Positions 11,478 to 45,053 of a stretch of 56,005 bases of DNA are shown one piece after another (position 1 is the first letter of the stretch; each line of letters begins with the position of its first letter). Below the pieces are notes generated by a model. The model was given only the letters and a program-made list of their open reading frames with translations, was not told the origin of the DNA and made no database searches. This DNA comes from Nemertoderma westbladi (lineage: Eukaryota; Animalia; Xenacoelomorpha). The DNA lies in assembly GCA_032718475.1 (NCBI GenBank), contig JAUCBJ010006203.1:1-56005 (forward strand). The letters run 5' to 3'. The position numbers and the translations under genes were made by a program.

Positions 11478-11671
11478 GAACAATATTCTAACGCTGTTAT
11501 TGTCCGCGGATACCGAGCCGGACAACTCCGCTAAGAGAGTTCCTTGCACCTGTAACCCCAGTCTGGAGACTGACATTAGACGAGTTGTCTCCAGTCAAAT
11601 TCGTCAACGTAAAGGGGAATTACCTTGTTTCTATCTGAGCAACAATACAGTGACATTCGCTCTACCAAGCG
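11478..11671 (+). CDS. ZRANB1: ZRANB1/Trabid exon A (end of AnkUBD to start of OTU region)
   Basis: tttag|G acceptor, then NNILTLLLSADTEPDNSAKRVPCTCNPSLETDIRRVVSSQIRQRKGELPCFYLSNNTVTFALPS, then G|gtaagt donor. It resembles the Trabid segment IRREIAASLHQRKGDFACYFLTDLVTFTLPA. Phase 1 matches exon B. Confidence 0.9.
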
Positions 11672-14600
11672 GTAAGTGTTAGACCAACAATACAGTGGCA
11701 TTCGCTCTACCAAGCGGTAAGTGTTAGACCAACAATACAGTGACAATCGCTCTACCAAGCGGTAAGTGTTAGACCAACAATACAGTGACAATCGCTCTAC
11801 CAAGCGGTAAGTGTTAGACCAACAATACAGTGACATTCGCTCTACCAAGCGGTAAGTGTTAGACCAACAATACAGTGACATTCGCTCTACCAAGCGGTAA
11901 GTGTTAGACCAACAATACAGTGACATTCGCTCTACCAAGCGGTAAGTGTTAGACCAACAATACAGTTACAATCGCTCTACCAAGCGGTAAGTGTTAGACC
12001 AACAATACAGTGACATTCGCTCTACCAAGCGGTAAGTGTTAGACCAACAATACAGTGACATTCGCTCTACCAAGCGGTAAGTGTTAGACCAACAATACAG
12101 TGACATTCGCTCTACCAAGCGGTAAGTGTTAGACCAACAATACAGTGACAATCGCTCTACCAAGCGGTAAGTGTTAGACCAACAATACAGTGACAATCGC
12201 TCTACCAAGCGGTAAGTGTTAGACCAACAATACAGTGACAATCGCTCTACCAAGCGGTAAGTGTTAGACCAACAATACAGTGACATTCGCTCTACCAAGC
12301 GGTAAGTGTTAGACCAACAATACAGTGACAATCGCTCTACCAAGCGGTAAGTGTTAGACCAACAATTCAGTGACATTCGCTCTACCAAGCGGTAAGTGTT
12401 AGACCAACAATACAGTGACATTCGCTCTACCAAGCGGTAAGTGTTAGACCAACAATACAGTGACATTCGCTCTACCAAGCGGTAAGTGTTAGACCAACAA
12501 TACAGTGACAATCGCTGAAACCAAGCGGTAAGTGTTAGACCAACAATACAGTGACAATCGCTGAAACCAAGCGGTAAGTGTTAGACCAACAATACAGTGA
12601 CAATCGCTGAAACCAAGCGGTAAGTGTTAGACCAACAATACAGTGACAATCGCTGAAACCAAGCGGTAAGTGTTAGACCAACAATACAGTGACAATCGCT
12701 GAAACCAAGCGGTAAGTGTTAGACCAACAATACAGTGACAATCGCTCTACCCAGCGGTAAGTGTTAGACCAACAATACAGTGACATTCGCTCTACCAAGC
12801 GGTAAGTGTTAGACCAACAATACAGTGACAATCGCTCTACCAAGCGGTAAGTGTTAGACCAACAATACAGTGACAATCGCTGAAACCAAGCGGTAAGTGT
12901 TAGACCAACAATACAGTGACAATCGCTCTACCAAGCGGTAAGTGTTAGACCAACAATACAGTGACAATCGCTGAAACCAAGCGGTAAGTGTTAGACCAAC
13001 AATACAGTGACAATCGCTCTACCCAGCGGTAAGTGTTAGACCAACAATACAGTGACAATCGCTGAAACCAAGCGGTAAGTGTTAGACCAACAATACAGTG
13101 ACATTCGCTCTACCAAGCGGTAAGTGTTAGACCAACAATACAGTGACAATCGCTCTACCAAGCGGTAAGTGTTAGACCAACAATACAGTGACAATCGCTG
13201 AAACCAAGCGGTAAGTGTTAGACCAACAATACAGTGACATTCGCTCTACCAAGCGGTAAGTGTTAGACCAACAATACAGTGACATTCGCTCTACCAAGCG
13301 GTAAGTGTTAGACCAACAATACAGTGACATTCATTCGCTCTACCAAGCGGTAAGTGTTAGACCAACAATACAGTGACATTCGCTCTACCAAGCGGTAAGT
13401 GTTAGACCAACAATACAGTTACAATCGCTCTACCAAGCGGTAAGTGTTAGACCAACAATACAGTGACATTCGCTCTACCAAGCGGTAAGTGTTAGACCAA
13501 CAATACAGTGACAATCGCTGAAACCAAGCGGTAAGTGTTAGACCAACAATACAGTGACAATCGCTCTACCAAGCGGTAAGTGTTAGACCAACAATACAGT
13601 GACATTCGCTCTACCAAGCGGTAAGTGTTAGACCAACAATACAGTGACAATCGCTCTACCAAGCGGTAAGTGTTAGACCAACAATACAGTGACATTCGCT
13701 CTACCAAGCGGTAAGTGTTAGACCAACAATACAGTGACATTCGCTCTACCAAGCGGTAAGTGTTAGACCAACAATACAGTGACATTCGCTCTACCAAGCG
13801 GTAAGTGTTAGACCAACAATACAGTGACATTCGCTCTACCAAGCGGTAAGTGTTAGACCAACAATACAGTGACATTCGCTGAAACCAAGCGGTAAGTGTT
13901 AGACCAACAATACAGTGACATTCGCTGAAACCAAGCGGTAAGTGTTAGACCAACAATACAGTGAAATCGCTCTACCAAGCGGTAAGTGTTAGACCAACAA
14001 TACAGTGACAATCGCTCTACCAAGCGGTAAGTGTTAGACCAACAATACAGTGACATTCATTCGCTCTACCAAGCGGTAAGTGTTAGACCAACAATACAGT
14101 GACAGTCGCTCTACCAAGCGGTAAGTGTTAGACCAACAATACAGTGGCATTCGCTCTACCAAGCGGTAAGTGTTAGACCAACAATACAGTGACATTCGCT
14201 GAAACCAAGCGGTAAGTGTTAGACCAACAATACAGTGACAATCGCTGAAACCAAGCGGTAAGTGTTAGACCAACAATACAGTGACATTCGCTGAAACCAA
14301 GCGGTAAGTGTTAGACCAACAATACAGTGACAATCGCTGAAACCAAGCGGTAAGTGTTAGACCAACAATACAGTGACATTCGCTCTACCAAGCGGTAAGT
14401 GTTAGACCAACAATACAGTGACAATCGCTCTACCAAGCGGTAAGTGTTAGACCAACAATACAGTGACAATCGCTCTACCAAGCGGTAAGTGTTAGACCAA
14501 CAATACAGTGACAATCGCTGAAACCAAGCGGTAAGTGTTAGACCAACAATACAGTGACAATCGCTGAAACCAAGCGGTAAGTGTTAGACCAACAATACAG

Positions 14601-17600
14601 TGACATTCGCTCTACCAAGCGGTAAGTGTTAGACCAACAATACAGTGACAATCGCTGAAACCAAGCGGTAAGTGTTAGACCAACAATACAGTGACAATCG
14701 CTGAAACCAAGCGGTAAGTGTTAGACCAACAATACAGTGACAATCGCTCTACCAAGCGGTAAGTGTTAGACCAACAATACAGTGACAATCGCTGAAACCA
14801 AGCGGTAAGTGTTAGACCAACAATACAGTGACAATCGCTCTACCAAGCGGTAAGTGTTAGACCAACAATACAGTGACAATCGCTCTACCAAGCGGTAAGT
14901 GTTAGACCAACAATACAGTGACAATCGCTCTACCAAGCGGTAAGTGTTAGACCAACAATACAGTGACATTCGCTCTACCAAGCGGTAAGTGTTAGACCAA
15001 CAATACAATGACAATCGCTCTACCAAGCGGTAAGTGTTAGACCAACAATACAGTGACATTCGCTCTACCAAGCGGTAAGTGTTAGACCAACAATACAGTG
15101 ACAATCGCTCTACCATGCGGTAAGTGTTAGACCAACAATACAGTGACAATCGCTGAAACCAAGCGGTAAGTGTTAGACCAACAATACAGTGACAATCGCT
15201 CTACCAAGCGGTAAGTGTTAGACCAACAATACAGTGACAATCGCTCTACCAAGCGGTAAGTGTTAGACCAACAATACAGTGACATTCGCTCTACCAAGCG
15301 GTAAGTGTTAGACCAACAATACAGTGACAATCGCTCTACCAAGCGGTAAGTGTTAGACCAACAATACAGTTACAATCGCTCTACCAAGCGGTAAGTGTTA
15401 GACCAACAATACAGTGACAATCGCTCTACCAAGCGGTAAGTGTTAGACCAACAATACAGTGACAATCGCTCTACCAAGCGGTAAGTGTTAGACCAACAAT
15501 ACAGTGACAATCGCTGAAACCAAGCGGTAAGTGTTAGACCAACAATACAGTGACAATCGCTGAAACCAAGCGGTAAGTGTTAGACCAACAATACAGTGAC
15601 AATCGCTGAAACCAAGCGGTAAGTGTTAGACCAACAATACAGTGACAATCGCTCTACCAAGCGGTAAGTGTTAGACCAACAATACAGTGACAATCGCTCT
15701 ACCAAGCGGTAAGTGTTAGACCAACAATACAGTGACATTCGCTGAAACCAAGCGGTAAGTGTTAGACCAACAATACAGTGACAATCGCTGAAACCAAGCG
15801 GTAAGTGTTAGACCAACAATACAGTGACAATCGCTGAAACCAAGCGGTAAGTGTTAGACCAACAATACAGTGACAATCGCTGAAACCAAGCGGTAAGTGT
15901 TAGACCAACAATACAGTTACAATCGCTCTACCAAGCGGTAAGTGTTAGACCAACAATACAGTTACAATCGCTCTACCAAGCGGTAAGTGTTAGACCAACA
16001 ATACAGTGACAATCGCTCTACCAAGCGGTAAGTGTTAGACCAACAATACAGTGACAATCGCTCTACCAAGCGGTAAGTGTTAGACCAACAATACAGTTAC
16101 AATCGCTGAAACCAAGCGGTAAGTGTTAGACCAACAATACAGTGACAATCGCTCTACCAAGCGGTAAGTGTTAGACCAACAATACAGTTACAATCGCTCT
16201 ACCAAGCGGTAAGTGTTAGACCAACAATACAGTGACATTCGCTCTACCAAGCGGTAAGTGTTAGACCAACAATACAGTGACAATCGCTCTACCAAGCGGT
16301 AAGTGTTAGACCAACAATACAGTGACAATCGCTCTACCAAGCGGTAAGTGTTAGACCAACAATACAGTGACATTCATTCGCTCTACCAAGCGGTAAGTGT
16401 TAGACCAACAATACAGTGACATTCGCTCTACCAAGCGGTAAGTGTTAGACCAACAATACAGTGACAATCGCTGAAACCAAGCGGTAAGTGTTAGACCAAC
16501 AATACAGTGACAATCGCTGAAACCAAGCGGTAAGTGTTAGACCAACAATACAGTGACAATCGCTGAAACCAAGCGGTAAGTGTTAGACCAACAATACAGT
16601 GACATTCGCTCTACCAAGCGGTAAGTGTGAGACCAACAATACAGTGACAATCGCTGAAACCAAGCGGTAAGTGTTAGACCAACAATACAGTGACAATCGC
16701 TGAAACCAAGCGGTAAGTGTTAGACCAACAATACAGTGACATTCGCTCTACCAAGCGGTAAGTGTTAGACCAACAATACAGTTACAATCGCTCTACCAAG
16801 CGGTAAGTGTTAGACCAACAATACAGTGACAATCGCTGAAACCAAGCGGTAAGTGTTAGACCAACAATACAGTGACAATCGCTGAAACCAAGCGGTAAGT
16901 GTTAGACCAACAATACAGTGACAATCGCTGAAACCAAGCGGTAAGTGTTAGACCAACAATACAGTTACAATCGCTCTACCAAGCGGTAAGTGTTAGACCA
17001 ACAATACAGTGACAATCGCTCTACCAAGCGGTAAGTGTTAGACCAACAATACAGTGACAATCGCTCTACCAAGCGGTAAGTGTTAGACCAACAATACAGT
17101 GACAATCGCTGAAACCAAGCGGTAAGTGTTAGACCAACAATACAGTGACATTCGCTCTACCAAGCGGTAAGTGTTAGACCAACAATACAGTTACAATCGC
17201 TCTACCAAGCGGTAAGTGTTAGACCAACAATACAGTGACAATCGCTGAAACCAAGCGGTAAGTGTTAGACCAACAATACAGTGACATTCGCTCTACCAAG
17301 CGGTAAGTGTGAGACCAACAATACAGTTACAATCGCTCTACCAAGCGGTAAGTGTTAGACCAACAATACAGTGACAATCGCTCTACCAAGCGGTAAGTGT
17401 TAGACCAACAATACAGTGACAATCGCTGAAACCAAGCGGTAAGTGTTAGACCAACAATACAGTGACAATCGCTGAAACCAAGCGGTAAGTGTTAGACCAA
17501 CAATACAGTGACATTCGCTCTACCAAGCGGTAAGTGTGAGACCAACAATACAGTTACAATCGCTCTACCAAGCGGTAAGTGTTAGACCAACAATACAGTG

Positions 17601-20600
17601 ACAATCGCTCTACCAAGCGGTAAGTGTTAGACCAACAATACAGTTACAATCGCTGAAACCAAGCGGTAAGTGTTAGACCAACAATACAGTTACAATCGCT
17701 CTACCAAGCGGTAAGTGTTAGACCAACAATACAGTGACATTCGCTCTACCAAGCGGTAAGTGTTAGACCAACAATACAGTGACATTCGCTCTACCAAGCG
17801 GTAAGTGTTAGACCAACAATACAGTGACAATCGCTCTACCAAGCGGTAAGTGTTAGACCAACAATACAGTGACATTCGCTCTACCAAGCGGTAAGTGTTA
17901 GACCAACAATACAGTGACAATCGCTGAAACCAAGCGGTAAGTGTTAGACCAACAATACAGTGACAATCGCTCTACCAAGCGGTAAGTGTTAGACCAACAA
18001 TACAGTGACATTCGCTCTACCAAGCGGTAAGTGTTAGACCAACAATACAGTGACATTCGCTCTACCAAGCGGTAAGTGTTAGACCAACAATACAGTGACA
18101 TTCGCTCTACCAAGCGGTAAGTGTTAGACCAACAATACAGTGACAATCGCTCTACCAAGCGGTAAGTGTTAGACCAACAATACAGTGACATTCGCTCTAC
18201 CAAGCGGTAAGTGTTAGACCAACAATACAGTGACATTCGCTCTACCAAGCGGTAAGTGTTAGACCAACAATACAGTGACATTCGTTCTACCAAGCGGTAA
18301 GTGTTAGACCAACAATACAGTGACAATCGCTCTACCAAGCGGTAAGTGTTAGACCAACAATACAGTGACAATCGCTCTACCAAGCGGTAAGTGTTAGACC
18401 AACAATACAGTGACAATCGCTCTACCAAGCGGTAAGTGTTAGACCAACAATACAGTGACATTCATTCGCTCTACCAAGCGGTAAGTGTTAGACCAACAAT
18501 ACAGTGACATTCGCTCTACCAAGCGGTAAGTGTTAGACCAACAATACAGTGACAATCGCTCTACCAAGCGGTAAGTGTTAGACCAACAATACAGTGACAA
18601 TCGCTCTACCAAGCGGTAAGTGTTAGACCAACAATACAGTTACAATCGCTCTACCAAGCGGTAAGTGTTAGACCAACAATACAGTGACAATCGCTGAAAC
18701 CAAGCGGTAAGTGTAAGACCAACAATACAGTGACATTCGCTCTACCAAGCGGTAAGTGTTAGACCAACAATACAGTGACATTCGTTCTACCAAGCGGTAA
18801 GTGTTAGACCAACAATACAGTTACATTCATTCGCTCTACCAAGCGGTAAGTGTTAGACCAACAATACAGTGACATTCATTCGCTCTACCAAGCGGTAAGT
18901 GTTAGACCAACAATACAGTGACAATCGCTCTACCAAGCGGTAAGTGTTAGACCAACAATACAGTGACATTCGCTCTACCAAGCGGTAAGTGTTAGACCAA
19001 CAATACAGTGACATTCATTCGCTCTACCAAGCGGTAAGTGTTAGACCAACAATACAGTGACATTCGCTCTACCAAGCGGTAAGTGTTAGACCAACAATAC
19101 AGTGACAATCGCTCTACCAAGCGGTAAGTGTTAGACCAACAATACAGTGACATTCGCTCTACCAAGCGGTAAGTGTTAGACCAACAATACAGTTACATTC
19201 ATTCGCTCTACCAAGCGGTAAGTGTTAGACCAACAATACAGTGACAATCGCTCTACCAAGCGGTAAGTGTTAGACCAACAATACAGTGACATTCGCTCTA
19301 CCAAGCGGTAAGTGTTAGACCAACAATACAGTGACATTCATTCGCTCTACCAAGCGGTAAGTGTTAGACCAACAATACAGTGACATTCGCTCTACCAAGC
19401 GGTAAGTGTTAGACCAACAATACAGTGACATTCATTCGCTCTACCAAGCGGTAAGTGTTAGACCAACAATACAGTGACATTCGCTCTACCAAGCGGTAAG
19501 TGTTAGACCAACAATACAGTGACAATCGCTCTACCAAGCGGTAAGTGTTAGACCAACAATACAGTTACAATCGCTCTACCAAGCGGTAAGTGTTAGACCA
19601 ACAATACAGTTACAATCGCTCTACCAAGCGTAAGTGTTAGACCAACAATACAGTGACATTCATTCGCTCTACCAAGCGGTAAGTGTTAGACCAACAATAC
19701 AGTGACATTCGCTCTACCAAGCGGTAAGTGTTAGACCAACAATACAGTGACATTCGCTCTACCAAGCGGTAAGTGTTAGACCAACAATACAGTGACATTC
19801 ATTCGCTCTACCAAGCGGTAAGTGTTAGACCAACAATACAGTGACATTCGCTCTACCAAGCGGTAAGTGTTAGACCAACAATACAGTGACAATCGCTCTA
19901 CCAAGCGGTAAGTGTTAGACCAACAATACAGTGACATTCATTCGCTCTACCAAGCGGTAAGTGTAAGACCAACAATACAGTGACATTCGCTCTACCAAGC
20001 GGTAAGTGTTAGACCAACAATACAGTGACATTCATTCGCTCTACCAAGCGGTAAGTGTTAGACCAACAATACAGTGACAATCGCTCTACCAAGCGGTAAG
20101 TGTTAGACCAACAATACAGTTACAATCGCTCTACCAAGCGGTAAGTGTTAGACCAACAATACAGTTACAATCGCTCTACCAAGCGGTAAGTGTTAGACCA
20201 ACAATACAGTGACAATCGCTCTACCAAGCGGTAAGTGTTTGACCAACAATACAGTTACAATCGCTCTACCAAGCGGTAAGTGTTAGACCAACAATACAGT
20301 TACAATCGCTCTACCAAGCGGTAAGTGTTAGACCAACAATACAGTTACAATCGCTCTACCAAGCGGTAAGTGTTAGACCAACAATACAGTTACAATCGCT
20401 CTACCAAGCGGTAAGTGTTAGACCAACAATACAGTTACAATCGCTCTACCAAGCGGTAAGTGTTAGACCAACAATACAGTGACATTCGCTCTACCAAGCG
20501 GTAAGTGTAAGACCAACAATACAGTGACATTCGCTCTACCAAGCGGTAAGTGTTAGACCAACAATACAGTGACATTCGCTCTACCAAGCGGTAAGTGTTA

Positions 20601-23600
20601 GACCAACAATACAGTGACAATCGCTCTACCAAGCGGTAAGTGTTAGACCAACAATACAGTGACATTCATTCGCTCTACCAAGCGGTAAGTGTTAGACCAA
20701 CAATACAGTGACATTCGCTCTACCCAGCGGTAAGTGTTAGACCAACAATACAGTGACATTCGCTCTACCAAGCGGTAAGTGTTAGACCAACAATACAGTG
20801 ACAATCGCTCTACCAAGCGGTAAGTGTTAGACCAACAATACAGTGACAATCGCTCTACCAAGCGGTAAGTGTTAGACCAACAATACAGTGACAATCGCTC
20901 TACCAAGCGGTAAGTGTTAGACCAACAATACAGTGACATTCAATCGCTCTACCAAGCGGTAAGTGTTAGACCAACAATACAGTGACATTCATTCGCTCTA
21001 CCAAGCGGTAAGTGTTAGACCAACAATACAGTGACATTCGCTCTACCAAGCGGTAAGTGTTAGACCAACAATACAGTGACAATCGCTGAAACCAAGCGGT
21101 AAGTGTTAGACCAACAATACAGTGACAATCGCTGAAACCAAGCGGTAAGTGTTAGACCAACAATACAGTGACAATCGCTCTACCAAGCGGTAAGTGTTAG
21201 ACCAACAATACAGTGACATTCGCTCTACCAAGCGGTAAGTGTTAGACCAACAATACAGTGACAATCGCTCTACCAAGCGGTAAGTGTTAGACCAACAATA
21301 CAGTGACATTCGCTCTACCAAGCGGTAAGTGTTAGACCAACAATACAGTTACAATCGCTCTACCAAGCGGTAAGTGTTAGACCAACAATACAGTGACATT
21401 CGCTCTACCCAGCGGTAAGTGTTAGACCAACAATACAGTGACAATCGCTCTACCAAGCGGTAAGTGTTAGACCAACAATACAGTGACATTCGCTGAAACC
21501 AAGCGGTAAGTGTTAGACCAACAATACAGTGACAATCGCTCTACCAAGCGGTAAGTGTTAGACCAACAATACAGTGACATTCGCTCTACCAAGCGGTAAG
21601 TGTTAGACCAACAATACAGTGACAATCGCTCTACCCAGCGGTAAGTGTTAGACCAACAATACAGTGACATTCGCTCTACCAAGCGGTAAGTGTTAGACCA
21701 ACAATACAGTTACAATCGCTCTACCAAGCGGTAAGTGTTAGACCAACAATACAGTGACATTCGCTCTACCCAGCGGTAAGTGTTAGACCAACAATACAGT
21801 GACAATCGCTCTACCAAGCGGTAAGTGTTAGACCAACAATACAGTTACAATCGCTCTACCAAGCGGTAAGTGTTAGACCAACAATACAGTGACATTCGCT
21901 CTACCCAGCGGTAAGTGTTAGACCAACAATACAGTGACAATCGCTCTACCAAGCGGTAAGTGTTAGACCAACAATACAGTGACAATCGCTGAAACCAAGC
22001 GGTAAGTGTTAGACCAACAATACAGTGACATTCGCTCTACCAAGCGGTAAGTGTTAGACCAACAATACAGTGACATTCGCTCTACCCAGCGGTAAGTGTT
22101 AGACCAACAATACAGTGACAATCGCTCTACCAAGCGGTAAGTGTTAGACCAACAATACAGTGACATTCGCTCTACCAAGCGGTAAGTGTTAGACCAACAA
22201 TACAGTGACAATCGCTCTACCAAGCGGTAAGTGTTAGACCAACAATACAGTGACAATCGCTCTACCAAGCGGTAAGTGTTAGACCAACAATACAGTTACA
22301 ATCGCTCTACCAAGCGGTAAGTGTTAGACCAACAATACAGTGACATTCATTCGCTCTACCAAGCGGTAAGTGTTAGACCAACAATACAGTGACATTCGCT
22401 CTACCAAGCGGTAAGTGTTAGACCAACAATACAGTGACAATCGCTGAAACCAAGCGGTAAGTGTTAGACCAACAATACAGTGACAATCGCTGAAACCAAG
22501 CGGTAAGTGTTAGACCAACAATACAGTGACAATCGCTCTACCAAGCGGTAAGTGTTAGACCAACAATACAGTGACAATCGCTGAAACCAAGCGGTAAGTG
22601 TTAGACCAACAATACAGTGACATTCGCTCTACCAAGCGGTAAGTGTTAGACCAACAATACAGTGACAATCGATCTACCCAGCGGTAAGTGTTAGACCAAC
22701 AATACAGTGACATTCGCTCTACCAAGCGGTAAGTGTTAGACCAACAATACAGTGACAATCGATCTACCCAGCGGTAAGTGTTAGACCAACAATACAGTGA
22801 CATTCGCTCTACCAAGCGGTAAGTGTTAGACCAACAATACAGTGACATTCGCTCTACCAAGCGGTAAGTGTTAGACCAACAATACAGTGACATTCGCTCT
22901 ACCAAGCGGTAAGTGTTAGACCAACAATACAGTGACAATCGCTCTACCAAGCGGTAAGTGTTAGACCAACAATACAGTGACAATCGCTGAAACCAAGCGG
23001 TAAGTGTTAGACCAACAATACAGTGACAATCGCTCTACCAAGCGGTAAGTGTTAGACCAACAATACAGTGACAATCGCTGAAACCAAGCGGTAAGTGTTA
23101 GACCAACAATACAGTGACAATCGCTCTACCAAGCGGTAAGTGTTAGACCAACAATACAGTGACAATCGCTCTACCAAGCGGTAAGTGTTAGACCAACAAT
23201 ACAGTGACAATCGCTCTACCAAGCGGTAAGTGTTAGACCAACAATACAGTGACAATCGCTCTACCAAGCGGTAAGTGTTAGACCAACAATACAGTGACAT
23301 TCGCTCTACCAAGCGGTAAGTGTTAGACCAACAATACAGTTACAATCGCTCTACCAAGCGGTAAGTGTTAGACCAACAATACAGTGACAATCGCTCTACC
23401 AAGCGGTAAGTGTTAGACCAACAATACAGTGACAATCGCTGAAACCAAGCGGTAAGTGTAAGACCAACAATACAGTGACAATCGCTGAAACCAAGCGGTA
23501 AGTGTTAGACCAACAATACAGTGGCATTCGCTCTACCAAGCGGTAAGTGTTAGACCAACAATACAGTGACAATCGCTCTACCAAGCGGTAAGTGTTAGAC

Positions 23601-24271
23601 CAACAATACAGTGACATTCATTCGCTCTACCAAGCGGTAAGTGTTAGACCAACAATACAGTTACATTCGCTCTACCAAGCGGTAAGTGTTAGACCAACAA
23701 TACAGTGACAATCGCTGAAACCAAGCGGTAAGTGTAAGACCAACAATACAGTGACAATCGCTGAAACCAAGCGGTAAGTGTTAGACCAACAATACAGTGG
23801 CATTCGCTCTACCAAGCGGTAAGTGTTAGACCAACAATACAGTGACAATCGCTCTACCAAGCGGTAAGTGTTAGACCAACAATACAGTGACATTCATTCG
23901 CTCTACCAAGCGGTAAGTGTTAGACCAACAATACAGTGACATTCGCTCTACCAAGCGGTAAGTGTTAGACCAACAATACAGTGACATTCATTCGCTCTAC
24001 CAAGCGGTAAGTGTTAGACCAACAATACAGTGACATTCGCTCTACCAAGCGGTAAGTGTTAGACCAACAATACAGTGACATTCGCTCTACCAAGCGGTAA
24101 GTGTTAGACCAACAATACAGTGACATTCGCTCTACCAAGCGGTAAGTGTTAGACCAACAATACAGTGACAATCGCTCTACCAAGCGGTAAGTGTTAGACC
24201 AACAATACAGTGACAATCGCTCTACCAAGCGGTAAGTGTTAGACCAACAATACAGTGACATTCGCTCTACC
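11640..24271 (+). repeat. 45-bp minisatellite, main block (~280 copies), built from the exon A 3' end plus its 5' splice site
   Basis: Unit caacaatacagtgacaWtcgctctaccaagcg|gtaagtgttagac. Variants are 46-bp (gctgaaacc), 49-bp (attcattcgc) and gttac. Confidence 0.98.
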
Positions 24272-27200: not shown

Positions 27201-27287
27201 GGCCTGCGGCTTTAGGAGCGGCCGCGGTATTCACCTCCCTCATAGCGGCCGCGGCGGTGTTGCGTCAAATGGAGAAATATTTATCCC
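24272..27287. mobile_element. Unclassified ~3-kb AT-rich insertion inside the 45-bp array
   Basis: The array breaks at ctctacc|gagag and resumes at ttatccc|accaagcgg, giving a possible ACC duplication. There is no credible ORF and no clear TIR, but internal hairpins and a tRNA-like motif are present. Confidence 0.55.
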
Positions 27288-29288: not shown

Positions 29289-29533
29289 GTTCTACGCTAG
29301 ATGGCGTGAGTACGAGATCCTCCAGGCCGATATGCTGCAGTACAGCTGGAATAACGCCCAATGGGAGGCCGAGTGGACCATACAGCTAAGTCTAGCCACC
29401 CAACCAGGATCGGCGCTCGAGCAGCTGCATATATTCGCGTTGGCCCACATACTGCGTCGACCAATCATAGTCTACGGGGTGAAACTCGTTAAGAGTTTCA
29501 GGGGGGAAACCCTGGGGTTCGCTCGATTCGAAG
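29289..29533 (+). CDS. ZRANB1: ZRANB1/Trabid exon C (OTU)
   Basis: tatag|G acceptor; FYARWREYE..SLATQPGSALEQLHIFALAHILRRPIIVYGVKLVKSFRGETLGFARFE; G|gtgagt donor. Confidence 0.97.
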
Positions 29534-29639
29534 GTGAGTCTGATACTAACGTGGTACCACCCCATGGTACTACGGTGACATGGTGCCGTGGTTCCACCCC
29601 ACCGTACTGCGGTGGCGCGGTGTCGTAGTACCATGAGGT

Positions 29640-33375: not shown

Positions 33376-34745
33376 TCTACTACTACTACTACTACACGGT
33401 TTCTACTTACTGACTACAGGGTATCTACTTTCTGACTACACGGTTTCTACTTACTGACTACAGGGTATCTACTTTCTGACTACAGGGTGTCTACTTACTG
33501 ACTACACGGTTTCTACTTACTGACTACAGGGTATCTACTTTCTGACTACACGGTTTCTACTTACTGACTACAGGGTATCTACTTTCTGACTACATGGTGT
33601 CTACTTACTGACTACAGGGTGTCTACTTACTGACTACACGGTTTCTACTTACTGACTACAGGGTATCTACTTTCTGACTACATGGTGTCTACTTACTGAC
33701 TACAGGGTGTCTACTTACTGACTACAGGGTGTCTACTTACTGACTACAGGGTGTGTCTCCTTACTGACTACATGGTGTGTCTACTTACTGACTACAGGGT
33801 ATCTACTTTCTGACTACATGGTGTCTACTTACTGACTACAGGGTGTCTACTTGCTGACTACAGGGTGTCTACTTACTGACTACATGGTGTCTACCTACTG
33901 ACTACAGGGTGTCTACTTACTGACTACAGGGTGTCTACTTACTGACTACACGGTGTCTACTTACTGACTATATTGTGTCTACTTACTGACTACAGGGTGT
34001 CTACTTACTGACTATATTGTGTCTACTTACTGACTACAGGGTGTCTACTTACTGACTACATGGTGTCTACTTACTGACTACAGGGTATCTACTTTCTGAC
34101 TACAGGGTGTGTCTACTTACTGACTACATGGTGTCTACCTACTGACTACAGGGTGTCTACTTACTGACTACAGGGTGTCTACATACTGACTACACGTTGT
34201 CTACTTACTGACTATATTGTGTCTACTTACTGACTACAGGGTGTCTACTTGCGGACTACAGGGTGTCTACTTACTGACTATATTGTGTCTACTTACTGAC
34301 TACAGGGTGTCTACTTACTGACTACATGGTGTCTACTTACTGACTACAGGGTATCTACTTTCTTACTACATGGTGTCTACTTACTGACTACAGGGTGTCT
34401 ACTTACTGACTACAGGCTGTCTACTTATTGACTACATGGTGTCTACTTACTGGCTACAGTGTGTCTACTTACTGACTACAGGGTGTCTACTTACTGACTG
34501 CAGGGTGTCTACTTACTGACTACAGGGTTTACTACTTACTGACTACAGGGTTTACTACTTACTGACTACAGGGTTTACTACTTACTGACTACAGGGTATC
34601 TACTTACTGAATACAGGTTGTGTCTACTTACTGACTACAGTGTTTACTACTTACTGATTACAGGGTGTCTACTTACTGACTACAGTGTGTGTCTACTGAC
34701 TGACTACAGGGTTTACTACACACTGATTACAGGGTGTCTACTTAC
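33376..34745 (+). repeat. 22-bp minisatellite (~60 copies) containing TACTGAC, TACAG and the first bases of exon D
   Basis: Unit gtctacttactgactacagggt; exon D begins gtgtctacttac. Confidence 0.95.
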
Positions 34746-35289
34746 TGTCTACTTGTATCTACTTACTCTCCTCCTTCAGGTGACGTCTACTTACTGTCTA
34801 CTTGTATCTACAGTACTTACTGCCCTCCCTCAGGTGTCTACTTACTGTCTACTTGTATCTACAGTACTTACTCTCCTCCCTTAGGTGTCTACTTGTATCT
34901 ACATACTCTGATCAGATGTCTACTTACTGTCTACTTGTATCTACTTACTCTCCTCCTTCAGGTGACGTCTACTTACTGTCTACTTGTATCTACAGTACTT
35001 ACTGCCCTCCCTCAGGTGTCTACTTACTGTCTACTTGTATCTACAGCACTTACTCTCTTCCCTCAGGTGTCTACTTGTATCTACAGCACTTACTCTCTTC
35101 CCTCAGGTACTTGTATTACTTGTGTTACTTGTATCTACATACTCTGATCAGATGTCTACTTACTGTCTACTTGTATCTACTTACTCTCCTCAGGTGTCTA
35201 CTTACTGTCTACTTGTATCTACTTACTCTCCTCAGTTGTCTACTTACTGTCTACTTGTATCTACTTACTCTCCTCAGGTGTCTACTTAC
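34734..35289 (+). repeat. Compound 42-54-bp repeats spanning the exon D acceptor
   Basis: About 12 YAG sites of the type ctcctcag|gtgtctacttac. The last three units are exactly 42 bp, with AG at 35151, 35193, 35235 and 35277. Confidence 0.92.
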
Positions 35290-35507
35290 CACTCATGTGG
35301 GAGGTGAACTTCTGTATTCCCAGCGTGATCTGTCTCGGTTACACACGGGGCCACTTCTCTGCTCTCGTTGCTATGGAGGTTGACACTAGCGATAACTTGG
35401 GTGCCAGCGCTAACCTAGCTGACGACAAGAACGAACAGATAATGTTCCTACCCTTGACTGACTATCAGGGACAACTACTGCCTATACACTTCCTCACAAT
35501 GGAAGAG
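35278..35507 (+). CDS. ZRANB1: ZRANB1/Trabid exon D (OTU catalytic His box)
   Basis: ctcctcag|GT acceptor; GVYLPLMWEVNFCIPSVICLGYTRGHFSALVAME..GASANL..FLPLTDYQGQLLPIHFLTMEE; His codon at 35352-35354; GAG|gttagt donor. Confidence 0.96.
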
Positions 35508-35569
35508 GTTAGTTAAATAATGCCCTAAGTTAAATGATACCCTGTTAAATGATAGCAATGCCACACAAT

Positions 35570-36788
35570 GTTATGCCTCTTCCCTCTAGATGGCGCATCA
35601 CCGCATCTAGATGGCGCATCATCTAGGTGCCAAACAATGTTCTGTCTCTTCTCTCTAGATGGTGCATAGCAGTGCAACACAATGTTTTGTCTCTTCCCTC
35701 TAGATGGCGCATAGCAGTGCCATACATTGTTCTGTATCTTCCCTCTAGAGGGCGATTAGCAGTGCCACAGAATATTATGTCTCTTCCCTCTAGATGGCGC
35801 ATAGCAGTGCCATACATTGTTCTGTATCTTCCCTCTAGATGGCGCATAGCAGTGCCATACATTGTTCTGTATCTTCCCTCTAGATGGCGCATAGCAGTGC
35901 CATACATTGTTCTGTATCTTCCCTCTAGATGACGCATAGCAGTGCCATACAATGTTCTGTCTCTTCCCTCTAGATGGCGCATAGCAGTGCCATACATTGT
36001 TCTGTATCTTCCCTCTAGATGGCGCATAGCAGTGCCATACATTGTTCTGTATCTCCCCTCTAGATGGCGCATAGCAGTGCCATACATTGTTCTGTATCTT
36101 CCCTCTAGATGGCGCATAGCAGTGCCATACATTGTTCTGTATCTTCCCTCTAGAGGGCGATTAGCAGTGCCACAGAATATTATGTCTCTTCCCTCTAGAT
36201 GGCGCATAGCAGTGCCATACATTGTTCTGTATCTTCCCTCTAGATGGCGCATAGCAGTGCCATACATTGTTCTGTATCTTCCCTCTAGATGGCGCATAGC
36301 AGTGCCATACATTGTTCTGTATCTTCCCTCTAGATGACGCATAGCAGTGCCATACAATGTTCTGTCTCTTCCCTCTAGATGGCGCATAGCAGTGCCATAC
36401 ATTGTTCTGTATCTTCCCTCTAGATGGCGCATAGCAGTGCCATACATTGTTCTGTATCTTCCCTCTAGATGGCGCATAGCAGTGCCATACATTGTTCTGT
36501 ATCTTCCCTCTAGATGGCGCATAGCAGTGCCATACATTGTTCTGTATCTTCCCTCTAGATGGCGCATAGCAGTGCCATACATTGTTCTGTATCTTCCCTC
36601 TAGATGACGCATAGCAGTGCCATACAATGTTCTGTCTCTTCCCTCTAGATGGCGCATAGCAGTGCCATACATTGTTCTGTATCTTCCCTCTAGATGGCGC
36701 TTAGCAGTGCCATACATTGTTCTGTATCTTCCCTCTAGATGGCGCATAGCAGTGCCATACATTGTTCTGTATCTTCCCTCTAGATGGC
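35570..36788. repeat. 45-bp minisatellite (~27 copies)
   Basis: Unit ctagatggcgcatagcagtgccatacattgttctgtatcttccct. Confidence 0.97.
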
Positions 36789-36792
36789 TAGT

Positions 36793-36970: not shown

Positions 36971-37090
36971 ACTTGAAAGTAATGCCCGCTATGTTCCGGG
37001 CTCGGAATATTAACTACAAAACTTTCATCCAAAAACACCACCATATTAAATCTTTGAGAAAGTGACTATAGCTGACTGATATTCTTCCAG

Positions 37091-37251
37091 AGAGGACACG
37101 AGGAACAACTATTGAGACGATGGTTGGATTGTAGTGTCACTGAAGGTGGTCTATTAGTTGCTAAGCAACGCATTAGTCCGAAGCCATCTTGTGTCCGTCT
37201 GATGGTAGATGAATGGTTCAACCGATATCGGAACCTAACAGTGTCCGCACG
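37091..37251 (+). CDS. ZRANB1: ZRANB1/Trabid exon E
   Basis: ttccag|AGA acceptor (phase 0); RGHEEQLLRRWLDCSVTEGGLLVAKQR..VRLMVDEWFNRYRNLTVSAR, resembling Trabid LLREWLDCCVTEGGVLVAMQ..MVEKWLDRYR; CG|gtaagt donor. It is absent from the ORF track. Confidence 0.95.
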
Positions 37252-40200
37252 GTAAGTCTCTATGTGTCCGCAACGTAAGTCTCTATGTGTCCGCAAGGTA
37301 AGCCTCTATGTGTCCGCAAGGTAAGTCTCTATGTGTCCGCAAGGTAAGTCTCTATGTGTCCGCAAGGTAAGTCTCTATGTGTCCGCAAGGTGTAAGTCTC
37401 TATGTGTCCGCAAGGTAAGTCTCTATGTGTCCGCAAGGTAAGTCTCTATGTGTCCGCAACGTAAGTCTCTATGTGTCCGCAACGTAAGTCTCTATGTGTC
37501 CGCAAGGTAAGTCTCTGTGTCCGCAAGGTAAGTCTCTATGTGTCCGCAAGGTAAGTCTCTATGTGTCCGCAACGTAAGTCTCTATGTGTCCGCAAGTAAG
37601 TCTCTATGTGTCCGCAAGGTAAGTCTCTATGTGTCCGCAAGGTAAGTCTCTATGTGTCCGCAAGGTAAGTCTCTATGTGTCCGCAAGGTAAGTCTCTATG
37701 TGTCCGCAAGGTAAGTCTCTATGTGTCCGCAAGGTAAGTCTCTATGTGTCCGCAAGGTAAGTCTCTATGTGTCCGCAAGGTAAGTCTCTATGTGTCCGCA
37801 AGGTAAGTCTCTATGTGTCCGCAAGGTAAGTCTCTATGTGTCCGCAAGGTAAGTCTCTATGTGTCCGCAAGGTAAGTCTCTATGTGTCCGCAAGGTAAGT
37901 CTCTATGTGTCCGCAAGGTAAGTCTCTATGTGTCCGCAAGGTAAGTCTCTATGTGTCCGCAAGGTAAGTCTCTATGTGTCCGCAAGGTAAGTCTCTATGT
38001 GTCCGCAAGGTAAGTCTCTATGTGTCCGCAAGGTAAGTCTCTATGTGTCCGCAAGGTAAGTCTCTATGTGTCCGCAAGGTAAGTCTCTATGTGTCCGCAA
38101 GGTAAGTCTCTATGTGTCCGCAAGGTAAGTCTCTATGTGTCCGCAAGGTAAGTCTCTATGTGTCCGCAACGTAAGTCTCTGTGTCCGCAAGGTAAGTCTA
38201 TGTGTCCGCAAGGTAAGTCTCTATGTGTCCGCAAGGTAAGTCTCTATGTGTCCGCAAGGTAAGTCTCTATGTGTCCGCAAGGTAAGTCTCTATGTGTCCG
38301 CAAGGTAAGTCTCTATGTGTCCGCAAGGTAAGTCTCTATGTGTCCGCAAGGTAAGTCTCTATGTGTCCGCAAGGTAAGTCTCTATGTGTCCGCAAGGTAA
38401 GTCTCTATGTGTCCGCAAGGTAAGTCTCTATGTGTCCGCAAGGTAAGTCTCTATGTGTCCGCAAGGTAAGTCTCTATGTGTCCGCAAGGTAAGTCTCTAT
38501 GTGTCCGCAAGGTAAGTCTCTATGTGTCCGCAAGGTAAGTCTCTATGTGTCCGCAAGGTAAGTCTCTATGTGTCCGCAAGGTAAGTCTCTATGTGTCCGC
38601 AAGGTAAGTCTCTATGTGTCCGCAAGGTAAGTCTCTATGTGTCCGCAAGGTAAGTCTCTATGTGTCCGCAAGGTAAGTCTCTATGTGTCCGCAAGGTAAG
38701 TCTCTATGTGTCCGCAAGGTAAGTCTCTATGTGTCCGCAAGGTAAGTCTCTATGTGTCCGCAAGGTAAGTCTCTATGTGTCCGCAAGGTAAGTCTCTATG
38801 TGTCCGCAAGGTAAGTCTCTATGTGTCCGCAAGGTAAGTCTCTATGTGTCCGCAAGGTAAGTCTCTATGTGTCCGCAAGGTAAGTCTCTATGTGTCCGCA
38901 AGGTAAGTCTCTATGTGTCCGCAAGGTAAGTCTCTATGTGTCCGCAAGGTAAGTCTCTATGTGTCCGCAAGGTAAGTCTCTATGTGTCCGCAAGGTAAGT
39001 CTCTATGTGTCCGCAAGGTAAGTCTCTATGTGTCCGCAAGGTAAGTCTCTATGTGTCCGCAAGGTAAGTCTCTATGTGTCCGCAAGGTAAGTCTCTATGT
39101 GTCCGCAAGGTAAGTCTCTATGTGTCCGCAAGGTAAGTCTCTATGTGTCCGCAAGGTAAGTCTCTATGTGTCCGCAAGGTAAGTCTCTATGTGTCCGCAA
39201 GGTAAGTCTCTATGTGTCCGCAAGGTAAGTCTCTATGTGTCCGCAAGGTAAGTCTCTATGTGTCCGCAAGGTAAGTCTCTATGTGTCCGCAAGGTAAGTC
39301 TCTATGTGTCCGCAAGGTAAGTCTCTATGTGTCCGCAAGGTAAGTCTCTATGTGTCCGCAAGGTAAGTCTCTATGTGTCCGCAAGGTAAGTCTCTATGTG
39401 TCCGCAAGGTAAGTCTCTATGTGTCCGCAAGGTAAGTCTCTATGTGTCCGCAAGGTAAGTCTCTATGTGTCCGCAAGGTAAGTCTCTATGTGTCCGCAAG
39501 GTAAGTCTCTATGTGTCCGCAAGGTAAGTCTCTATGTGTCCGCAAGGTAAGTCTCTATGTGTCCGCAAGGTAAGTCTCTATGTGTCCGCAAGGTAAGTCT
39601 CTATGTGTCCGCAAGGTAAGTCTCTATGTGTCCGCAAGGTAAGTCTCTATGTGTCCGCAAGGTAAGTCTCTATGTGTCCGCAAGGTAAGTCTCTATGTGT
39701 CCGCAAGGTAAGTCTCTATGTGTCCGCAAGGTAAGTCTCTATGTGTCCGCAAGGTAAGTCTCTATGTGTCCGCAAGGTAAGTCTCTATGTGTCCGCAAGG
39801 TAAGTCTCTATGTGTCCGCAAGGTAAGTCTCTATGTGTCCGCAAGGTAAGTCTCTATGTGTCCGCAAGGTAAGTCTCTATGTGTCCGCAAGGTAAGTCTC
39901 TATGTGTCCGCAAGGTAAGTCTCTATGTGTCCGCAAGGTAAGTCTCTATGTGTCCGCAAGGTAAGTCTCTATGTGTCCGCAAGGTAAGTCTCTATGTGTC
40001 CGCAAGGTAAGTCTCTATGTGTCCGCAAGGTAAGTCTCTATGTGTCCGCAAGGTAAGTCTCTATGTGTCCGCAAGGTAAGTCTCTATGTGTCCGCAAGGT
40101 AAGTCTCTATGTGTCCGCAAGGTAAGTCTCTATGTGTCCGCAAGGTAAGTCTCTATGTGTCCGCAAGGTAAGTCTCTATGTGTCCGCAAGGTAAGTCTCT

Positions 40201-43200
40201 ATGTGTCCGCAAGGTAAGTCTCTATGTGTCCGCAAGGTAAGTCTCTATGTGTCCGCAAGGTAAGTCTCTATGTGTCCGCAAGGTAAGTCTCTATGTGTCC
40301 GCAAGGTAAGTCTCTATGTGTCCGCAAGGTAAGTCTCTATGTGTCCGCAAGGTAAGTCTCTATGTGTCCGCAAGGTAAGTCTCTATGTGTCCGCAAGGTA
40401 AGTCTCTATGTGTCCGCAAGGTAAGTCTCTATGTGTCCGCAAGGTAAGTCTCTATGTGTCCGCAAGGTAAGTCTCTATGTGTCCGCAAGGTAAGTCTCTA
40501 TGTGTCCGCAAGGTAAGTCTCTATGTGTCCGCAAGGTAAGTCTCTATGTGTCCGCAAGGTAAGTCTCTATGTGTCCGCAAGGTAAGTCTCTATGTGTCCG
40601 CAAGGTAAGTCTCTATGTGTCCGCAAGGTAAGTCTCTATGTGTCCGCAAGGTAAGTCTCTATGTGTCCGCAAGGTAAGTCTCTATGTGTCCGCAAGGTAA
40701 GTCTCTATGTGTCCGCAAGGTAAGTCTCTATGTGTCCGCAAGGTAAGTCTCTATGTGTCCGCAAGGTAAGTCTCTATGTGTCCGCAAGGTAAGTCTCTAT
40801 GTGTCCGCAAGGTAAGTCTCTATGTGTCCGCAAGGTAAGTCTCTATGTGTCCGCAAGGTAAGTCTCTATGTGTCCGCAAGGTAAGTCTCTATGTGTCCGC
40901 AAGGTAAGTCTCTATGTGTCCGCAAGGTAAGTCTCTATGTGTCCGCAAGGTAAGTCTCTATGTGTCCGCAAGGTAAGTCTCTATGTGTCCGCAAGGTAAG
41001 TCTCTATGTGTCCGCAAGGTAAGTCTCTATGTGTCCGCAAGGTAAGTCTCTATGTGTCCGCAAGGTAAGTCTCTATGTGTCCGCAAGGTAAGTCTCTATG
41101 TGTCCGCAAGGTAAGTCTCTATGTGTCCGCAAGGTAAGTCTCTATGTGTCCGCAAGGTAAGTCTCTATGTGTCCGCAAGGTAAGTCTCTATGTGTCCGCA
41201 AGGTAAGTCTCTATGTGTCCGCAAGGTAAGTCTCTATGTGTCCGCAAGGTAAGTCTCTATGTGTCCGCAAGGTAAGTCTCTATGTGTCCGCAAGGTAAGT
41301 CTCTATGTGTCCGCAAGGTAAGTCTCTATGTGTCCGCAAGGTAAGTCTCTATGTGTCCGCAAGGTAAGTCTCTATGTGTCCGCAAGGTAAGTCTCTATGT
41401 GTCCGCAAGGTAAGTCTCTATGTGTCCGCAAGGTAAGTCTCTATGTGTCCGCAAGGTAAGTCTCTATGTGTCCGCAAGGTAAGTCTCTATGTGTCCGCAA
41501 GGTAAGTCTCTATGTGTCCGCAAGGTAAGTCTCTATGTGTCCGCAAGGTAAGTCTCTATGTGTCCGCAAGGTAAGTCTCTATGTGTCCGCAAGGTAAGTC
41601 TCTATGTGTCCGCAAGGTAAGTCTCTATGTGTCCGCAAGGTAAGTCTCTATGTGTCCGCAAGGTAAGTCTCTATGTGTCCGCAAGGTAAGTCTCTATGTG
41701 TCCGCAAGGTAAGTCTCTATGTGTCCGCAAGGTAAGTCTCTATGTGTCCGCAAGGTAAGTCTCTATGTGTCCGCAAGGTAAGTCTCTATGTGTCCGCAAG
41801 GTAAGTCTCTATGTGTCCGCAAGGTAAGTCTCTATGTGTCCGCAAGGTAAGTCTCTATGTGTCCGCAAGGTAAGTCTCTATGTGTCCGCAAGGTAAGTCT
41901 CTATGTGTCCGCAAGGTAAGTCTCTATGTGTCCGCAAGGTAAGTCTCTATGTGTCCGCAAGGTAAGTCTCTATGTGTCCGCAAGGTAAGTCTCTATGTGT
42001 CCGCAAGGTAAGTCTCTATGTGTCCGCAAGGTAAGTCTCTATGTGTCCGCAAGGTAAGTCTCTATGTGTCCGCACGGTAAGTCTCTATGTGTCCGCAAGG
42101 TAAGTCTCTGTGTCCGCAAGGTAATCTCTATGTGTCCGCAAGGTAAGTCTCTATGTGTCCGCAAGGTAAGTCTCTATGTGTCCGCAAGGTAAGTCTCTAT
42201 GTGTCCGCAAGGTAAGTCTCTATGTGTCCGCAAGGTAAGTCTCTATGTGTCCGCAACGTAAGTCTCTATGTGTCCGCAACGTAAGTCTCTATGTGTCCGC
42301 AACGTAAGTCTCTATGTGTCCGCAAGGTAAGTCTCTATGTGTCCGCAAGGTAAGTCTCTATGTGTCCGCAACGTAAGTCTCTATGTGTCCGCAACGTAAG
42401 TCTCTATGTGTCCGCACGGTAAGTCTCTATGTGTCCGCAAGGTAAGTCTCTATGTGTCCGCAAGGTAAGTCTCTATGTGTCCGCACGGTAAGTCTCTATG
42501 TGTCCGCAAGGTAAGTCTCTATGTGTCCGCAAGGTAAGTCTCTATGTGTCCGCAAGGTAAGTCTCTATGTGTCCGCAAGGTAAGTCTCTATGTGTCCGCA
42601 AGGTAAGTCTATATGTGTCCGCAAGGTAAGTCTCTATGTGTCCGCAAGGTAAGTCTCTATGTGTCCGCAAGGTAAGTCTCTATGTGTCCGCAAGGTAAGT
42701 CTCTATGTGTCCGCAAGGTAAGTCTCTATGTGTCCGCAAGGTAAGTCTCTATGTGTCCGCAAGGTAAGTCTCTATGTGTCCGCAAGGTAAGTCTCTATGT
42801 GTCCGCAAGGTAAGTCTCTATGTGTCCGCAAGGTAAGTCTCTATGTGTCCGCAAGGTAAGTCTCTATGTGTCCGCAACGTAAGTCTCTATGTGTCCGCAA
42901 CGTAAGTCTCTATGTGTCCGCAAGGTAGTCTCTATGTGTCCGCAAGGTAAGTCTCTATGTGTCCGCAAGGTAAGTCTCTATGTGTCCGCAACGTAAGTCT
43001 CTGTGTCCGCAAGGTAAGCCTCTATGTGTCCGCAAGGTAAGTCTCTATGTGTCCGCAACGTAAGTCTCTATGTGTCCGCAAGGTAAGTCTCTATGTGTCC
43101 GCAAGGTAAGTCTCTATGTGTCCGCAAGGTAAGTCTCTATGTGTCCGCAACGTAAGTCTCTATGTGTCCGCAAGGTAAGTCTCTATGTGTCCGCAAGGTA

Positions 43201-45053
43201 AGTCTCTATGTGTCCGCAAGGTAAGTCTCTATGTGTCCGCAAGGTAAGTCGCTATGTGTCCGCACGGTAAGTCTCTATGTGTCCGCAAGGTAAGCCTCTA
43301 TGTGTCCGCAAGGTAAGTCTCTATGTCCGCAAGGTAAGTCTCTATGTGTCCGCAAGGTAAGTCGCTATGTGTCCGCAAGGTAAGTCTCTATGTGTCCGCA
43401 AGGTAAGTCTCTATGTGTCCGCAAGGTAAGTCTCTATGTGTCCGCAAGGTAAGTCTCTATGTGTCCGCAAGGTAAGCCTCTATGTGTCCGCAAGGTAAGT
43501 CTCTATGTCCGCAAGGTAAGTCTCTATGTGTCCGCAAGGTAAGTATCTATGTGTCCGCAAGGTAAGTCTCTATGTGTCCGCAAGGTAAGTCTCTATGTGT
43601 CCGCAAGGTAAGTCTCTATGTGTCCGCAAGGTAAGTCGCTATGTGTCCGCAAGGTAAGTCTCTATGTGTCCGCAAGGTAAGTCTCTATGTGTCCGCAAGG
43701 TAAGTCTCTATGTGTCCGCAAGGTAAGTCTATATGTGTCCGCAAGGTAAGTCTCTATGTGTCCGCAAGGTAAGTCTCTATGTGTCCGCAAGGTAAGTCTC
43801 TATGTGTCCGCAAGGTAAGTCTCTATGTGTCCGCAAGGTAAGTCTCTATGTGTCCGCAAGGTAAGTCTATATGTGTCCGCAAGGTAAGTCTCTGTGTCCG
43901 CAAGGTAAGTCTCTATGTGTCCGCAAGGTAAGTCTCTATGTGTCCGCACGGTAAGTCTCTATGTGTCCGCAAGGTAAGTCTCTATGTGTTCGCAAGGTAA
44001 GTCTCTATGTGTCTGCAAGGTAAGTCTCTATGTGTCCGCAAGGTAAGTCTCTATGTGTCCGCACGGTAAGTCTCTATGTGTCCGCAAGGTAAGTCTATAT
44101 GTGTCCGCAAGGTAAGTCTCTATGTGTCCGCAAGGTAAGTCTCTATGTGTCCGCAAGGTAAGTCTCTATGTGTCCGCAAGGTAAGTCTCTATGTGTCCGC
44201 AAGGTAAGTCTCTATGTGTCCGCAAGGTAAGTCTATATGTGTCCGCAAGGTAAGTCTCTATGTGTCCGCAAGGTAAGTCTCTATGTGTCCGCAAGGTAAG
44301 TCTCTATGTGTCCGCAAGGTAAGTCTCTATGTGTCCGCAAGGTAAGTCTCTATGTGTCCGCAAGGTAAGTCTCTATGTGTCCGCAACGTAAGTCTCTATG
44401 TGTCCGCAACGTAAGTCTCTATGTGTCCGCAAGGTAAGTCTCTATGTGTCCGCAAGGTAAGTCTCTATGTGTCCGCAAGGTAAGTCTCTATGTGTCCGCA
44501 ACGTAAGTCTCTGTGTCCGCAAGGTAAGCCTCTATGTGTCCGCAAGGTAAGTCTCTATGTGTCCGCAACGTAAGTCTCTATGTGTCCGCAAGGTAAGTCT
44601 CTATGTGTCCGCAAGGTAAGTCTCTATGTGTCCGCAAGGTAAGTCTCTATGTGTCCGCAACGTAAGTCTCTATGTGTCCGCAAGGTAAGTCTCTATGTGT
44701 CCGCAACGTAAGTCTCTATGTGTCCGCAAGGTAAGTCTCTATGTGTCCGCAAGGTAAGTCTCTATGTGTCCGCAAGGTAAGTCTCTATGTGTCCGCAAGG
44801 TAAGTCTCTATGTGTCCGCAAGGTAAGTCTCTATGTGTCCGCAAGGTAAGTCTCTATGTGTCCGCAAGGTAAGTCTATGTGTCCGCAAGGTAAGTCTCTA
44901 TGTGTCCGCAAGGTAAGTCTCTATGTGTCCGCACGGTAAGTCTCTATGTGTCCGCAAGGTAAGTCTCTATGTGTTCGCAAGGTAAGTCTCTATGTGTCCG
45001 CAAGGTAAGTCTATGTGTCCGCAAGGTAAGTCTCTATGTGTCCGCAAGGTAAG
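37241..45053 (+). repeat. 23-bp minisatellite (~340 copies) built from the exon E 3' end plus its 5' splice site
   Basis: Unit gtgtccgcaag|gtaagtctctat; the first copy is the real exon end gtgtccgcacg|gtaagt. Confidence 0.98.

Follow-up and report, generated by a model that had tools for sequence, protein, structure and literature searches.

This analysis concerns a 56,005-nt stretch of DNA from Nemertoderma westbladi (contig JAUCBJ010006203.1, positions 1 to 56,005 of the forward strand), hereafter the window. It contains the 3′ part of a gene for the deubiquitinase Trabid/ZRANB1, with six exons separated by five GT..AG introns, three of which hold long tandem arrays built from the gene's own exon–intron edges. 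The spliced model encodes 386 aa with no internal stop. No exon 5′ of exon A was found in the window. The exons are as follows, with a slash marking the exon–intron boundary in splice-site sequences.

Approximately 11479-11671, plus strand: exon A, placed by tblastn of homologues and by the spliced contig of run X4 (see below); the 5′ edge is approximate
28450-28717, plus strand: exon B, start of the OTU domain, TAGDC motif
29289-29533, plus strand: exon C, OTU domain
35278-35507, plus strand: exon D, GHFS motif
37091-37251, plus strand: exon E, authentic donor ACG/GTAAGT
45468-45531, plus strand: exon F, coding portion up to the TAG stop

A search with exon B matched 991 proteins, and the named proteins among the 120 listed matches are Trabid/ZRANB1-type deubiquitinases with identities of up to 69%. 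Exons A to E were matched by tblastn with 12 homologues, with five identical hits for each of the 7 queries listed, and the spliced model shows 54–58% identity to animal Trabid/ZRANB1 proteins (12/12 aligned). A preliminary description of this DNA, made from its letters alone, had reported an intact catalytic Cys and His. Both the TAGDC and the GHFS motif are intact in the spliced model, and we take their Cys and His to be the catalytic residues of Trabid. In a protein tree the model lies on a long branch, without supported grouping. The guanine–cytosine (GC) content is 51% in the exons and 34% in the non-array introns.

Tandem arrays were called across the window with Tandem Repeats Finder (TRF). 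Three junctions of the gene are spanned by arrays, composed of the following blocks.

11640-24271, plus strand: 45-bp array, main block, 277.6 copies (277 units)
27288-27433, plus strand: 45-bp array, second block, 3.2 units
28075-28414, plus strand: 45-bp array, third block, 7.6 units
33383-34767, plus strand: 22-bp array, 62 copies, grading into 42/51-bp units
34733-35289, plus strand: 42/51-bp units with a pyrimidine tract, CAG and 12 nt of the exon D head
37241-45053, plus strand: 23-bp array, approximately 341 units

Each 45-bp unit consists of 32 nt of the exon A tail and 13 nt of the intron head, with the donor GCG/GTAAGT, and the last 32 nt of exon A are already part of the periodic pattern. 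The array thus starts inside exon A, as the preliminary description had it, but the unit is more than the exon tail plus GTAAGT given there, since it includes 13 intron bases. Only 60 nt separate the last donor copy, in the third block, from the exon B acceptor, and the 16.8-kb intron A–B consists almost entirely of the 45-bp array and its nested insertions. The 23-bp unit is composed of approximately 11 nt of the exon E tail and 12 nt of the intron head, and its periodicity extends about 11 nt into exon E, in agreement with the proposal that this array begins within the exon and repeats exon tail plus donor. The sequence AAG/GTAAGT is present in 302 of its copies. The exon F acceptor lies 414 nt past the array, within unique sequence, and its CAG is the sole one in intron E–F. 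Counting the authentic donors, there are 289 exact GTAAGT words in intron A–B and 333 in intron E–F, and this total of 622 is close to the roughly 630 donor copies initially estimated.

The third junction is the acceptor of exon D, where the periodicity of the 42-bp units covers 12 nt of the exon. Both unit types had been described as CAG followed by the exon head, which is accurate for the 42-bp units and inaccurate for the 22-bp array. The 22-bp unit contains a branch-point-like word, TACTGAC, and the 12-nt head of exon D, but its common form reads CAG-G-GTGTC, in which an extra G puts the AG one base out of register. This unit is a diverged, out-of-register derivative. The exon D head occurs in 58 copies in intron C–D (at most one mismatch), with an AG directly before it in just 6; these 6 in-register acceptor copies precede the true exon D acceptor, and the final three are in frame and free of stops. 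Among the 36 pairs formed by nine units, only the 22-bp and 42-bp units are significantly alike, which indicates that the three arrays arose separately and upholds the earlier view of unrelated units. The sequences therefore support an independent derivation of each array from its own junction.

Six sequencing runs are listed, none recorded as RNA, and five were compared over two stretches of the window. The run data are assembled contigs, which reveal the main form, drop rare isoforms, and show presence, not absence. In the public run X4, one 1872-nt contig at a depth of 430 joins exons A to F: the unique part of exon A and a single tail copy are joined to B and then to C, exon C is joined to D at 35278 without any 42-bp unit, D is joined to E, and E is joined to F at its first donor. 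The contig differs from the window once in exon B, synonymously. The intronic part of either donor unit occurs in no X4 contig, which says nothing about rare isoforms. The Trabid gene is transcribed and spliced, and the original site is used at all three array junctions in the main transcript. The concern that this copy of the gene might be silent has therefore not been borne out.

Run X5 holds the D–E join only. One of its contigs ends at the exon E donor with no loose end, and a 53-nt array contig has a depth of 11.3 vs 149.8; it may reflect pre-mRNA or DNA carry-over, and no conclusion is drawn from it. Runs X1, X2, and X3 cover intron sequence, with no joined form listed. We considered whether the joined form could stem from a processed retrocopy and set this aside, as X2, a DNA run from the sample of X5, has intron sequence and none of the contigs listed for X1 to X3 is joined.

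A depth comparison of the DNA runs covered the two donor arrays, not the acceptor array. In X1 and X2, which come from two studies, the donor units reach depths in the thousands vs approximately 20–25 for the single-copy flanks, and one X1 contig runs from intron D–E through exon E into the 23-bp array. Intron D–E of X2 departs from the window sequence at 4 listed positions, so X2 carries another haplotype. The ratios of unit to single-copy depth vary among X1, X2, and X3, and because X2 and X3, from one sample, themselves differ about five-fold, these ratios cannot show array length or copy number. With respect to the possibility, raised earlier, that the arrays are absent or much shorter in the reads, the donor arrays are present at high depth and in X1 and X2 contigs, whereas their lengths are not fixed.

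The choice of another site would have different consequences on the two sides. Read-through to later donors meets a stop within 3 codons at exon A or 1 codon at exon E. In contrast, the upstream acceptors whose AG precedes 35152, 35194, or 35236 keep the frame without a stop and would add 42, 28, and 14 aa, respectively. The earlier claim that only the outermost copy keeps the Trabid frame is thus correct for both donors and incorrect for the acceptor. The 22-bp array upstream of the exon D acceptor also contains 53 CTGAC branch-point-like words and 40 AGs; the main transcript still takes the true site.

Arrays of this kind have published counterparts. Tandem copies of exon–intron boundaries are termed “mirages” in amphioxus, where they are found in Adh3, the globin genes BflGb6 and BflGb9, troponin C, and PGBD5, on either exon side and with a normal mRNA (PMC3087553, PMC3902484). 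Like these, the Trabid arrays comprise minisatellite-sized head-to-tail units that contain the gene's own exon and intron edge on the donor or acceptor side, with a repeated splice signal, homogenized interior units, and a normal mRNA made from the authentic sites. Unit sizes overlap as well (10–72 bp in Adh3; 22/42, 23, and 45 bp here), whereas the globin examples have 3–6 units compared with approximately 290 and 340 here.

In human F7, a 37-bp variable number tandem repeat (VNTR) of 5–25 copies occupies intron 7, its first unit spans the exon end, and in constructs the most upstream donor wins over stronger copies (PMC1557585). Donor-spanning minisatellites are also reported for human IFI6 (6–16), CBS, LMNB2, and PDGF; for IFI6 and CBS, use extends to the one or two donor copies that follow (PMC1557585). 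The Trabid donor arrays resemble F7 in having a first unit that spans the exon end, identical donors that follow it, and use of the most upstream donor despite stronger copies; the F7 group differs in having 5–25 copies, one junction per gene, and the donor side only. A 25-bp VNTR in intron 18 of human ABCA7 has alleles of up to approximately 427 units (10.7 kb), and a second donor is used there at a low level (PMC5954066). It resembles the Trabid arrays in carrying a donor GT per unit and in the scale of its copy number, but its unit begins at the GT, without an exon tail. Repeats at exon–intron boundaries are likewise described in human segmental duplications, and the part of that study considered here contains no test against a null (PMC2812944). 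The Trabid arrays are new neither in structure nor in scale and are a further case of a published class.

The variants within the donor arrays bear on how they grew. The main 45-bp block is an irregular succession of 26 distinct unit types in which no repeated run exceeds 6 units and shared variants are scattered throughout. In the 23-bp array, 282 of 341 units are identical, variants lie toward both ends, and the interior is uniform, with 168 identical units in a row from 38202. Both arrays display the concerted evolution that characterizes the mirage class, and no higher-order repeat was found in either. The exon-derived part of the copies drifts freely: 161 of 277 45-bp units carry a change in the codon for Phe in the conserved TFALP motif, and 77 of 282 intervals in this array measure 46 or 49 nt.

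We consider the arrays, as the more probable reading, to be minisatellites of the gene's own exon–intron edges that are spliced past at the original sites and are likely kept because they are nearly harmless, not because they function. The preliminary description had offered biased mutation at splice junctions or a role in splicing, and it missed a third explanation, already in the literature, in which continued use of the outermost site makes these duplications tolerable. The course of events that probably links these elements is a chance origin, tolerance through the choice of the outermost site, and expansion through ordinary minisatellite turnover. First, a tandem duplication of 20–45 bp would have happened to straddle a junction. 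Since the collapsed introns measure only approximately 60–1200 nt, junctions make up a fair share of the sites at which a duplication is neutral for the protein. Second, the first donor or last acceptor is still used in the main transcript, which leaves the extra copies intronic; for donors, the published 5′-to-3′ preference for the most upstream site fits this step (PMC1557585). Slips to later donors would hit a prompt stop, and nonsense-mediated decay would probably remove the transcripts of those at exon A. Third, the pattern of variants suggests that slippage or unequal exchange expanded and homogenized each array, and the 45-bp array appears old enough to have received two insertions. The surroundings are saturated with repeats: tandem arrays account for 64% of the window and, beyond the 3′ end of the gene, for 81% of the sequence, five further intronic arrays in the Trabid gene span no junction, and at least 9 other non-junction arrays have expanded in the region.

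The locus extends the F7 rule, by which the first donor wins even against stronger copies, to an invertebrate gene with about 300 competing donors. On the acceptor side, its main transcript takes the last site in preference to three others that are in frame. The locus further illustrates how an intron of approximately 60 nt can reach 16.8 kb from its own junction.

Homologous loci provide limited context. The relatives comprise 39 metagenome loci, 38 with matches to the model, all of them distant and from short reads, with little bearing on the age of the arrays. Introns are present at the A–B, B–C, C–D, and D–E positions in 7, 12, 16, and 10 of the 38 loci, respectively, and the sequence is continuous there in 9, 11, 10, and 12, the remainder being uncovered or unclear. 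Because homologous loci have these introns, the introns predate the arrays and were not created by the duplications; intron gain by tandem duplication is accordingly ruled out at A–B and C–D. For E–F, a position covered in 5 of the 38 loci and continuous in all 5, the same origin was considered and not adopted, the acceptor lying in unique sequence well beyond the array. No TRF array overlaps the exon matches in the 38 loci.

Whether junctions are favored as sites of array formation was assessed against a null in which the arrays were collapsed to one unit each and positions were counted where a duplication leaves the mRNA unchanged. The scope is one gene in a window picked for this pattern, with cut-offs set after seeing the data. 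Three of the 8 intronic arrays span a junction (expected 1.3, P 0.11). When the 315-bp array is left out, the count is 3 of 7 (P 0.03; GC-matched 0.08–0.12).

Several observations weigh against a harmless chance origin. Three of the 5 large arrays (at least 1 kb, period below 100) span a junction (P 0.011; GC-matched 0.03–0.05), and the 3-of-8 count reaches P 0.014 if both insertions in intron A–B are counted as target. In the collapsed gene, none of the five large arrays is more than 35 nt away from a splice site (P 0.0007; P 0.003 with a 60-nt cut-off), and 6 of 8 intronic arrays are near one (P 0.006–0.024). The donor 9-mer of the 45-bp array is free of all 15 distinct substitutions seen there (3.0 expected to hit it, P 0.035 for this array alone). 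The contigs drop rare isoforms, so other sites may see minor use. Finally, the length of the ABCA7 VNTR alters splicing through exon skipping, so an array that appears harmless may still have an effect (PMC5954066).

The proximity of the arrays to splice sites is the basis for a first alternative, a tentative one that we consider rather doubtful, in which tandem duplications in this lineage are seeded preferentially at or near splice sites and then tolerated. On this possible but unlikely scenario, new minisatellites would be seeded at splice sites or no more than a few dozen bases away from them, at a rate far above chance, and introns would grow outward from there. The mechanism would be wholly conjectural, with candidates including DNA breaks linked to transcription or splicing, a step in nucleosomes or GC where exons end, and RNA-templated repair. 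Donor and acceptor sides are both affected, and the two large arrays that span no junction begin 16 and approximately 60 nt from a donor. Against this stand the choice of a single gene, after the fact, out of a very large scan; the P of 0.11 over all 8 intronic arrays and the range of 0.03–0.12 once GC-matched; and three more arrays of 1–4 kb downstream of the gene, where no exons were found. The enrichment at junctions is weak within the window and no more than hints that seeding is biased toward splice sites. We found no genome-wide test of arrays at splice sites against a null in the literature, most subscription journals lying outside the search. Seeding beyond a matched null genome-wide would, if true, establish a mutational link between splicing and tandem duplication and would matter more than tolerance; the locus would then also be an extreme natural first-donor test, in which one weaker donor beats 302 stronger copies.

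It is improbable that the arrays are kept for RNA processing, whether by recursive splicing at AAG/GT, by U1 loading that counters premature polyadenylation, or by length-tuned Trabid output. The 302 AAG/GTAAGT copies form an AG/GT junction and match the U1 consensus at 8/9 positions vs 7/9 for the authentic exon E donor, which is nevertheless the one used; this difference between AAG and ACG is, however, a synonymous Arg change (AGG vs CGG) and may represent an old allele. The intact donor 9-mers of the 45-bp array and the ABCA7 precedent also speak for such a role. In the 23-bp array, by contrast, 3 of 8 distinct substitutions hit the donor 9-mer (3.1 expected), as do most indels, and for both donor arrays combined the figure is 3 of 23 vs 6.1 expected (P 0.097). 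Judged from these copies, donor positions are not clearly conserved. A recursive splice site has AG/GT together with an upstream pyrimidine tract and a branch point. The 302 copies share the AG/GT, but their acceptor would be AAG after a short pyrimidine stretch, and the 45-bp copies read GCG/GT, without AG. AATAAA is absent from both donor arrays, which themselves form most of the intron length that they would help to process, and homologous Trabid loci have ordinary introns. The suggestion in the preliminary description that the arrays act in splicing is therefore unsupported, given the lack of clear donor conservation, of AATAAA, and of AG/GT in the 45-bp copies. RNA folding of the junction units revealed no unusual structure (z −0.27, −1.56, +2.66, and +0.21), which leaves donor masking by RNA structure without support.

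It is highly improbable that assembly errors created the arrays or the greater part of their length: the 168 identical 23-bp units have a length that only spanning reads could fix, and X1 and X2 may be the assembly's own source, but the donor units are deep in both runs, exon E and the adjoining array are linked by an X1 contig, X2 carries another haplotype, and the 26 unit types of the 45-bp block follow one another irregularly, without repeated runs of more than 6 units.

Beyond the three junctions, minisatellites of the gene's own edges being the reading we retain for those, the introns contain the following insertions and arrays.

24272-27287, strand not assigned: non-array insertion of approximately 3.0 kb that splits the 45-bp array
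27434-28074, minus strand: insertion of approximately 640 bp (0.64 kb) that splits the 45-bp array; one end is (TAGA)n, and the minus strand has a frame of 104 aa
29550-31545, strand not assigned: 37-bp array called by TRF, 72% GC, beginning 16 nt after the exon C donor, junction not spanned
35568-36788, strand not assigned: second 45-bp array, unrelated to the first, beginning approximately 60 nt after the exon D donor, junction not spanned

The 3.0-kb insertion may have a target duplication of 3 nt, and the frames inside it do not exceed 85 aa. The 640-bp insertion is presumably the end of a 5′-truncated long interspersed nuclear element (LINE), its 104-aa frame resembling the C-terminal end of LINE open reading frame 2 (ORF2). 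This frame has no Pfam match, and its atlas matches are only to unnamed clusters (0.94–0.95, low recognition).

Each unit of the 37-bp array at 29550-31545 contains a hairpin (z −7.98). The array at 35568-36788 holds 22 matches to a CTCF-like motif vs 0.05 expected from shuffles that ignored the repeat structure; the pattern used, CCNCYAGRKGGCR, is one that we assume represents this motif. The 315-bp repeats at 31811-32826 hold a word similar to it. In intron B–C, dispersed-repeat pieces lie at 28834-29220, where many contigs of all four runs partly overlap.

Downstream of the stop codon, the region 46112-56005 is occupied by unrelated arrays of 38 bp (109 copies), 49 bp (24 copies), and 37 bp (86 copies), the last of which exits the window. 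No second gene was found behind these three arrays, in a weak test in which 3 of 3 frames lacked a Pfam match, and no exon was found between them. On the 5′ side of exon A, an array of three 85-bp units lies at 9182-9435, at no known junction. Further upstream, a retrotransposon of the Pao/BEL type occupies positions 1-5596 on the minus strand, in which frames of 386 and 301 aa without Pfam matches precede a 1209-aa frame that is open to the window edge and matches DUF1759 and Peptidase_A17.

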